Shown here: one piece after another, positions 29,474 through 29,690 of the stretch | How the letters are laid out: the number at the start of each line of letters is the position of its first letter | Position numbering within the stretch: position 1 is the first letter of the stretch | From: Candidatus Saccharimonadota bacterium | Lineage (GTDB): Bacteria; Patescibacteriota; Saccharimonadia; Saccharimonadales; UBA4665 | Direction of reading: 5' to 3' | Length of the DNA: 32,000 nt | Assembly (NCBI GenBank): GCA_016700375.1 | Contig: CP065016.1 | Coordinates: 570,001-602,000 of the forward strand | Program-made: the position numbers and the translations under genes | Notes under the pieces: model-generated | What the model was told of the DNA's origin: nothing | Databases searched by the model: none | Seen by the model: only the letters and a program-made list of their open reading frames with translations

Positions 29474-29690
29474 ATGCTTCCCAAACAAAAATCACCTCTG
29501 TTAAATATCGGATCCCGGGTGAATTTGCGGGAGGTACCATCCGATTTCTAAAAGGGGTGATCTTTTAGCGCTTAGTTACGTGGTCTGACAGGCCGTTCCG
29601 TTGGAATCTACTTTCTGGCTACGGCCAGATTTCTCTCCACTGCTTCGTGGTTGATAGCCACTAATCCGGCAAAGCCGAAACGCATTTAAT
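29474..29690 (-). promoter_or_regulatory. T-box riboswitch leader, Ile specifier (AUC), copy 2
   Basis: The 5' half (specifier hairpin, specifier at 29655-29653, and stem II) is identical to copy 1. The 3' half is diverged but keeps the fold:
- Stem III: CUAAAAG-AUCACCC-CUUUUAG.
- Antiterminator: AUCGGA-[UGGUACC]-UCCCG-CAAAUUCACC-CGGGA-UCCGAU.
- Then ...ACAGAGGUGAUU followed by UUUUGUUU.

A1 is fully compensated relative to copy 1 (GCCAGA/UCUGGC becomes AUCGGA/UCCGAU). Confidence 0.75.

Follow-up and report, generated by a model that had tools for sequence, protein, structure and literature searches.

We consider two paralogous RNA leaders in a stretch of 32,000 nucleotides (nt) from a Candidatus Saccharimonadota bacterium (GenBank assembly GCA_016700375.1, contig CP065016.1, positions 570,001 to 602,000; the whole stretch is called the window below). 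Each leader stands in front of an operon that begins with a GNAT gene and contains ileS, the gene of the isoleucyl-tRNA synthetase (IleRS). The T-box is a textbook riboswitch class, and ileS is its commonest context. The two leaders, copy A and copy B, are very likely Ile-specific T-box riboswitches that govern transcription read-through into the paralogous GNAT-...-ileS operons. A bolder proposal, to which we give slightly less than even chances, is that the Saccharibacteria, and perhaps other members of the Candidate Phyla Radiation (CPR), have a distinct T-box class. Such a class would combine a terminator decision, an ultrashort Stem I with no elbow contact, an OFF helix that displaces Stem III, and a charge signal passed on via Stem III docking alone.

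An earlier annotation made from the letters of the window alone (the sequence-only reading) had placed a T-box leader at 29474-29690, and these coordinates are correct, the strand being minus. Read in that direction, copy B starts at 29690, about 7 nt 3' of a TATACT -10 box, and ends at 29474, the last base before the ATG of the GNAT gene (29473..29471). Its paralog, copy A, runs on the same strand from 23437 to 23224. The genes 3' of the leaders are identified as ileS (TIGR00392, 788 bits).

The decisive test that the sequence-only reading had named is a wider alignment. Using IleRS_A, the synthetase of the operon behind copy A, as the query, we obtain 80 ileS loci, nearly all from metagenome-assembled genomes of Candidatus Saccharibacteria. 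The motif GAUGGNACC is found upstream of ileS in 72 of these 80 loci, usually about 70 nt before the start codon. The 72 leaders, chosen only by the presence of this motif upstream of ileS, and the two window copies were aligned with MAFFT in a structure-blind manner, and the family figures given below refer to these 74 leaders. An earlier motif scan that demanded complementary A1 and A2 strands is biased and was kept out of the statistics. In the alignment, 89.9% of the cells of the proposed helices are paired, versus 34-46% when the partners are slid by 1-3 columns; many of the leaders are related, and the slid controls preserve this relatedness, yet their pairing is far lower. Changes on both sides are seen in 36 of the 42 pairs, and none of 500 shuffles reaches any of the observed measures. 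A1 is 99.1% paired with four of its six pairs doubly changed, a figure to be read with the fact that the two final bases of the A1 5' strand are set by selection on the bulge motif. For A2 the pairing is 94.9%, and all five pairs are doubly changed. The lower stem of the terminator, in which the loop and 3' strand of Stem III pair with a downstream arm, is 82.9% paired (44-57% with slid partners) and doubly changed in 12 of 13 pairs. The helices are thus preserved, not broken as often, and the claim that the pattern is what selection on RNA structure produces is borne out across the family.

The order of the elements in the family, from 5' to 3', starts with AUGCGUUC, a variable hairpin, GAUGAG, a Stem I of 4 base pairs (bp) with the loop CUAUCAA/C, and CGAAG. 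These are followed by Stem II with AGAA / AGUAGA, by ACGG...CCGU(C/A/U)A, and by AAGYG, Stem III and GGAA; the 3' end consists of A1, UGGUACC, A2 and A1', then the 3' arm and the U-tract. In copy B the specifier AUC (29655..29653), with the A that follows it, sits in the 7-nt terminal loop of Stem I and fits the amino acid of the downstream ileS; AUC-A is at least 90% conserved. The S-turn-type internal loop of Stem II (AGAA / AGUAGA), in which AGAA and UAGA are nearly invariant, and the F-box (CCGUCA / CUGUCA) are both found, the three-dimensional S-turn being predicted from sequence only. Next comes a purine string, AAGUG or AAGCG, then Stem III and (G)GAA or (A)GAA, in columns that are invariant or nearly so, as is the A-A-G-x-G before Stem III; the corresponding purine motif is defined as 5'-RRRxG-Stem III-AA-3' (PMC7583486). 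In the K-turn region the family consensus GAUGAG...CGAAG permits tandem G-A pairs, and the inserted 5' hairpin P0 obscures the topology. A sub-family of five leaders (L025, L034, L040, L051 and L053; 5' of ileS, ~3740..3990) is without Stem III, and there the terminator 3' arm (GGGGY) pairs directly with AAGYCCC after the purine motif.

The Stem IIA/B pseudoknot's IIB half calls for a test of its own. A fixed-column description of IIB failed and its register varies from leader to leader, so per-sequence complementarity with a permutation was used: the IIA loop of each sequence is compared with its own 3' tail and with the tails of other sequences. The own-tail complementarity is 9.19, versus 7.45 +/- 0.20 for the permuted tails (0 of 2000). 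Examples of the partners are GACU/AGUC, ACAG/CUGU, UCAC/GUGA, AUUUGA/UCAAAU and UACG/CGUA, the last of which (in L021) lies in the same IIB register as in copy B.

Membership in the T-box class can be approached from the model side as well. A covariance model (R1) was built from 34 leaders; left out were copies A and B and the leaders closely related to them (L001, L002, L028 and L048). It finds copy A with 103.2 bits (E = 4e-18) and copy B with 85.4 bits (E = 1e-14); its only other matches within the window, two in number, are weak and fall at these very sites, on the opposite strand. R1 also matches the discriminator of a canonical Firmicutes-type T-box with 28.6 bits (E = 0.004). The G-G and A-C-C of the bulge are invariant in the family, though the sequences were chosen by GAUGGNACC. 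As for the ligand, the sole tRNA gene that ARAGORN finds in 60 loci is a tRNA-Ile(GAU) in L060, which ends in A73-CCA; this tRNA, from the Saccharibacteria and not the window genome's own, is complementary both to AUC and to the UGGU of the bulge.

How do the two copies of the window compare with each other? In a structure-annotated pairwise alignment of their diverged 3' parts, 31 of 134 aligned columns differ, and eight of these differences lie within the 44 paired columns of IIA, Stem III, A1 and A2. The substitutions touch five pairs; all five remain standard pairs and none is broken. The sequence-only reading had all positions of A1 co-varying, which holds for three of the six pairs (G-C to A-U, C-G to U-A and A-U to G-C), the rest being identical. 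The change from U-G to U-A that it had assigned to the closing pair of Stem III is present, at the second pair from the base and not at the closing position. A further change, from G-C to G-U in IIA, had gone unmentioned. In both copies the bulge reads UGGUACC and the A2 stem UCCCG/CGGGA, the A2 loops differ (AAUAACC in A versus CAAAUUCACC in B), and both copies fold as a long hairpin and then a U-tract, all as the sequence-only reading had it. The partners of the pseudoknot had been said to change together, from UCGG/CCGG to ACG/CGU. These pairings are out of register: copy B has one extra base, and its pseudoknot pairing lies 2 nt further downstream than that of A. Because of this shift, the A/B pair alone cannot establish IIB covariation, and it is the family-wide test that supports the pseudoknot. 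The two 3' domains are 24% diverged, similar to the neighboring genes (the amino-acid identity between the operons is 77% for IleRS and 66% for GNAT). From the sequence comparison, we read the A/B differences as those of two ileS lineages that diverged long ago while selection maintained the structure. From the conservation we infer that, as had been claimed, each of the two leaders is functional.

The 5' halves of the two leaders have a different history. The segment 23345..24868 is the same as 29598..31120 (a 1.5-kb block of 1524 bp) save one 1-nt indel and one substitution: base 23730 is missing from copy B, with a frameshift in the transposase as the consequence, and the substitution is at 23854 / 30106. 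Most of the block is an insertion sequence (IS) of the IS481-like type, with an rve transposase at 23571..24818 on the plus strand (415 amino acids (aa) in copy A, frameshifted in copy B), subterminal TTCAGGCTCAT repeats (inverted repeat 23496-23507 / 24837-24848) and a left end at about 23478. The identity runs about 133 nt past the end of the IS into both leaders, and takes in the putative promoter and the whole decoding half (P0, Stem I and Stem II). The idea that the identical 5' half is itself IS sequence is rejected, since the stretch 23345..23433 is homologous to the leaders of many ileS loci and none of the 80 loci has a match to the IS itself. The locus L001, which is closely related to operon A (95% nucleotide identity, 99% IleRS identity), has a leader that is 98% identical to copy A in the 3' domain and only 62% identical in the 5' domain, and therefore the 5' half was replaced in the lineage of the window. 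The recombination junction falls within the conserved AGUAGAUUCCAACGG. The 5' halves of A and B are thus identical because the 1.5-kb block was recently copied between the loci; this identity reflects recombination, not constraint, and the A/B comparison is therefore independent only over the 3' ~120 nt. No convincing target-site duplications or inverted repeats are found at the ends of the 1524-bp block. A direct 11/12 match on the plus strand, TTGGAATCTACT versus TTGGAATATACT, between the S-turn strand (23345..23362) and the right terminus of the IS (24852..24868), sits exactly at both block ends, and could be chance, a recombination substrate or a target preference of the IS.

We turn to the output domain. 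The terminator of copy B has the loop and 3' strand of Stem III as its 5' arm and UUUAACAGAGGUGAU as its 3' arm, with A1/A2 nested on top and the U-tract UUUUUGUUU behind it. RNAalifold, given 40 of the 3' domains, independently arrives at the lower stem together with A1 and A2, with 17 of 22 pairs compensatory. In the minimum-free-energy (MFE) folds of the individual sequences, A1 is kept in 74 of 74 leaders, and a nested lower stem of at least 6 bp is present in 68 of 74. With the 3' arm withheld, 68 of the 74 form Stem III, and the mean free energy is -21.7 kcal/mol, as opposed to -33.8 kcal/mol when the whole sequence folds. Since the lower stem uses the loop and 3' strand of Stem III while A1 and A2 stay in place, the mutually exclusive pair is Stem III versus the lower stem. 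A U-run, at least 90% conserved, follows directly after the terminator helix. The Shine-Dalgarno (SD) sequence (GGAG in copy A, of the AAGGAG type in most loci) lies 5-20 nt 3' of the helix, unpaired and outside all the conserved helices. The T-box terminators were not reported by the promoter/terminator scan because their loops are above its limit; the putative promoter of copy B is also absent from the output of that scan.

A mechanism can be proposed from these elements with the help of what is described for other T-boxes, in which Stem III stacks on the antiterminator, the flanking purines latch the tRNA-bulge duplex, and charged tRNA displaces Stem III (PMC7583486, PMC12647780, bioRxiv 10.1101/2023.02.28.530422). 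Uncharged tRNA-Ile(GAU) would pair with AUC through its anticodon and with UGGU through its A73-CCA end. This pairing would lock Stem III, stacked and purine-latched, onto A1/A2; with Stem III held, its 3' strand would be unavailable and RNA polymerase would read through. With charged tRNA, or with no tRNA, Stem III would undock, and the downstream arm (CUAAAAGAGGUGA in A, UUUAACAGAGGUGAU in B) could invade through the Stem III loop and displace the Stem III 5' strand. The outcome would be a helix of 13-15 bp, stacked below A1 and directly before the U-tract, at which transcription stops. The OFF helix would then be a rival of Stem III, and not of A1/A2 as in canonical T-boxes. This swap of Stem III is a step that we only infer from the structural analysis.

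The leaders have likenesses to two known kinds of T-box. Ultrashort ileS T-boxes of the Actinobacteria (M. tuberculosis, M. smegmatis, N. farcinica) were reportedly described by Sherwood et al. in 2015, and structures are available (6UFG, 6UFM). With these the Saccharibacteria leaders share the regulation of ileS and the use of tRNA-Ile, a short Stem I with the specifier in its terminal loop and no elbow-binding double T-loop (here predicted), a Stem II with an S-turn, a IIA/B pseudoknot of 21-24 nt, the F-box CCGUCA, and Stem III followed by A1, bulge and A2. The ultrashort type is described for translational ileS T-boxes of Actinobacteria (bioRxiv 10.1101/2023.02.28.530422), which act by an SD sequestrator, whereas the leaders studied here have an intrinsic terminator, a U-tract and a free SD; no helix that occludes the SD is found. 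They also differ in the host (Saccharibacteria, CPR), in the 5' hairpin P0 that most members carry, and, in the window, in having GNAT as the first gene. With the canonical T-boxes of RF00230 (B. subtilis tyrS and glyQS), on the other hand, they share transcription attenuation by a terminator and U-tract (again a prediction for the leaders here), UGGNACC between A1 and A2, the RRRxG-Stem III-AA arrangement, a specifier that fits the regulated aminoacyl-tRNA synthetase, and a 3' domain that R1 matches. Unlike these, the Saccharibacteria leaders are without a long Stem I, AG bulge and distal platform, their specifier is in a terminal and not an internal loop, and the 5' arm of their terminator is the loop and 3' strand of Stem III and encloses A1/A2. 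In canonical T-boxes it is the 3' strands of A1/A2 that make up the 5' strand of the terminator (PMC7583486).

Several observations weigh against the assignment of the leaders to the transcriptional T-boxes. The Rfam model RF00230 has no match in the window (gathering score, E <= 10) or in 321-nt pieces round each copy (E <= 10), and none in 14 related loci or in the consensus-like leader L013. That the scan library simply lacked RF00230 is excluded by the canonical T-box controls, which were found with 127 bits (L121) and 108 bits (L118); the sub-threshold Rfam matches (mir-1545, mir-244, freshwater-2, snoRNAs) are noise. With the T-box elements present and RF00230 silent, the family therefore qualifies as a T-box by the elements that define the class, yet the curated model does not cover it. 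A long Stem I, an internal specifier loop and a distal elbow-binding platform are missing, with only a 15-nt hairpin between the strands of the GA motif, and a review holds that a long Stem I is generally needed by transcriptional T-boxes. The window copies have a U in place of the K-turn G (GAUUAG), and the base pair of A2 is U-A in both, not the G-U wobble that is described as a steric sensor (PMC7583486). ARAGORN finds no tRNA gene in the window. The terminator of copy B is weaker than that of A and has internal mismatches (-25.7 versus -36.8 kcal/mol), mismatches that are common to its lineage relatives L002, L028 and L048. Finally, A1/A2 are compatible with the terminator fold, and therefore the canonical logic, in which the tRNA stabilizes A1 versus the terminator, is not directly applicable.

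This last point leads to the alternatives. It is unlikely, in our estimate, that the switch is canonical after all, with an OFF state that re-pairs the T-box or the A1/A2 3' strands and melts A1/A2, the nested arrangement being an artefact of the folding programs. In both window copies UACCUC (bulge plus A2 5' strand) can indeed pair over 6 bp with GAGGUG of the 3' arm, but this complementarity is lost in loci whose A2 starts with GCCC or GUCC, the A1/A2 3' strands pair downstream in none of the 74 leaders, and the 3' arm covaries with the loop and 3' strand of Stem III instead. In the canonical control L121, terminator and A1 3' strand overlap in the usual way. Quite improbable, too, is a translational mode of action as in the ultrashort ileS class of the Actinobacteria, with the long helix hiding the ribosome-binding site instead of ending transcription. 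In its favor is the ultrashort decoding domain, a type that until now has been described only from translational ileS T-boxes; the unpaired SD past the helix and the conserved U-run directly after it speak against such a role.

Copy B, or both copies, could also be a relic in decay, left by a duplication that the IS disturbed, with the helices kept only for lack of time. The IS adjoins both leaders; in copy B the transposase carries a frameshift and the terminator has mismatches. The 3' domains have, however, diverged as far as the neighboring genes and yet contain no broken pair, the peculiar bases of copy B (AUUUAACAGAGGUGAU, CUUUUAG) are common to the same lineage relatives, and the reading frames of IleRS_A and IleRS_B are both intact, so that we consider a relic very improbable. 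The silence of RF00230 would also suit a conserved attenuator or a protein-binding ileS leader that resembles a T-box and does not sense tRNA at all. To this we give hardly any probability: every T-box signature is there, in the correct order (AUC-A, S-turn loop, F-box pseudoknot, RRRxG-Stem III-AA, and UGGNACC between covarying A1/A2), R1 cross-matches the canonical discriminator, and tRNA-Ile fits both specifier and bulge. The reading as Ile-specific transcriptional T-boxes is the one that we carry forward. The features of the two loci are collected in Table 1.

Table 1. Positions in the window of the two leaders, the structural elements of copy B, the operons and the duplicated block
Feature	Positions	Strand	Basis and remarks
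Leader copy B	29474..29690	-	Putative transcript start to the base preceding the GNAT start codon; sequence; model R1 match 29475..29588; aligned with 72 homologous leaders
Leader copy A	23224..23437	-	A1 GCCAGA/UCUGGC; bulge 23286..23280; Stem III 23295..23316; terminator 3' arm and U-tract 23233..23254
Putative promoter, copy B (TTGTGC, 18 nt, TATACT)	29697..29726	-	Read from sequence
Putative promoter, copy A	23444..23473		Identical to the copy B promoter
5' hairpin P0 (UUCGGC-UUU-GCCGGA), before GA motif	29665..29679	-	76.8% paired; 6/6 pairs doubly changed; length varies in family
Ultrashort Stem I (GUGG-CUAUCAA-CCAC)	29647..29661	-	99.0% paired; 4/4 pairs covary
Stem II: lower helix UGGA/UCCA, S-turn-type internal loop GAGAAA / AAGUAGA, apical hairpin	29602..29639	-	Two helices, 97.0% and 75.8% paired
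Stem IIA/B pseudoknot with F-box (ACGG-AACGGC-CUGUCA-GACC-ACGU); IIB = ACG/CGU	29578..29601	-	IIA 85.8% paired; IIB by permutation test
AAGCG (RRRxG purine string) and Stem III (CUAAAAG-AUCACCC-CUUUUAG), then AA	29548..29573	-	Helices 96.3% and 85.9% paired
Antiterminator: A1 AUCGGA/UCCGAU, bulge UGGUACC (29539..29533), A2 UCCCG/CGGGA, loop CAAAUUCACC	29507..29545	-	A1 99.1%, A2 94.9% paired; 3 double changes versus copy A
Terminator hairpin, copy B	29483..29561	-	MFE folds; lower-stem covariation; RNAalifold consensus; per-sequence folds
Operon B, downstream of leader B	24871..29473	-	GNAT, CdiA_C-like open reading frame (ORF), IleRS_B, glutamine amidotransferase
GNAT, operon B	28946..29473	-	First gene after leader B
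CdiA_C-like ORF, 125 aa, operon B	28534..28911	-	Pfam CdiA_C, E = 9e-15
IleRS_B	25539..28436	-	Operon B
Class-I glutamine amidotransferase / peptidase C26	24871..25542	-	Operon B
Operon A, downstream of leader A	19221..23223	-	GNAT, GDSL hydrolase, IleRS_A
GNAT, operon A	22693..23223	-	First gene after leader A
GDSL hydrolase	22103..22696	-	Operon A
IleRS_A	19221..22106	-	Operon A
Near-identical block	29598..31120	.	IS481-like element ~29731..31120; promoter and T-box decoding domain 29598..29730

The two IleRS paralogs stand in tandem in what is presumably a small CPR genome. The nearest relative of IleRS_A is that of L001 (99%), and the nearest relatives of IleRS_B are those of L002 and L028 (83-84%), which suggests that one of the two may have been acquired from another Saccharibacteria lineage. 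GNAT homologs precede ileS also in L001 and L002, and more weakly in L052, L058, L073-L075 and L080; a fused NCBIfam family, 'ileS_w_GNAT' (NF040702), exists, so that the association of GNAT with IleRS recurs. The CdiA_C-like product of operon B, which is named after the C-terminal domain of a contact-dependent inhibition toxin, is an odd neighbor for ileS. At the edge of the window, which clips it, the 3' end of a gene for a Cys-rich protein (...CYNCGNQTQRSGSCYVCTSCGSTTGCS*) is found at 31908..32000 on the minus strand, and this gene end is kept 5' of ileS in many Saccharibacteria loci (76-87% nucleotide identity). Between the IS and the upstream ORF of 135 aa lies a near-perfect palindrome (AGTATCAAATGTGTCCCAG / CTGGGACATATTTGATACT, 31151..31196), which is probably a bidirectional terminator and which produced a spurious mir-610 match. 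The sequence TGGTACC occurs 26 times window-wide versus 4.9 expected, and 17 of the 26 occurrences are inside a giant ORF of 3679 aa (6569..17608, minus strand) whose long internal repeats include 9259-10441 and 11257-12439, about 90% identical to each other.

What would these leaders mean for the Saccharibacteria and for the T-box family? The family is near-universal before Saccharibacteria ileS, with the motif in 72 of the 80 loci, yet it is missed by Rfam. As far as can be told, T-boxes that unite an ultrashort Stem I with an intrinsic terminator and competition with Stem III are apparently undescribed, and no paper linking T-boxes with Saccharibacteria or Patescibacteria was found in the searchable open-access literature. 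The two-copy mosaic shows a T-box decoding domain that is exchanged as a cassette with an IS and a promoter. A decoding domain of the ultrashort kind, which is regarded as characteristic of translational switches that are slow and reversible, would here be joined to an irreversible terminator, as our folds predict. If the distinct class is real, it contradicts the generalization that transcriptional T-boxes need a long Stem I platform. If confirmed, the leaders would offer a natural test of Stem III docking as the true output of aminoacylation sensing, and the family would provide an annotation model for one of the few recognizable riboregulators in the reduced genomes of the CPR.

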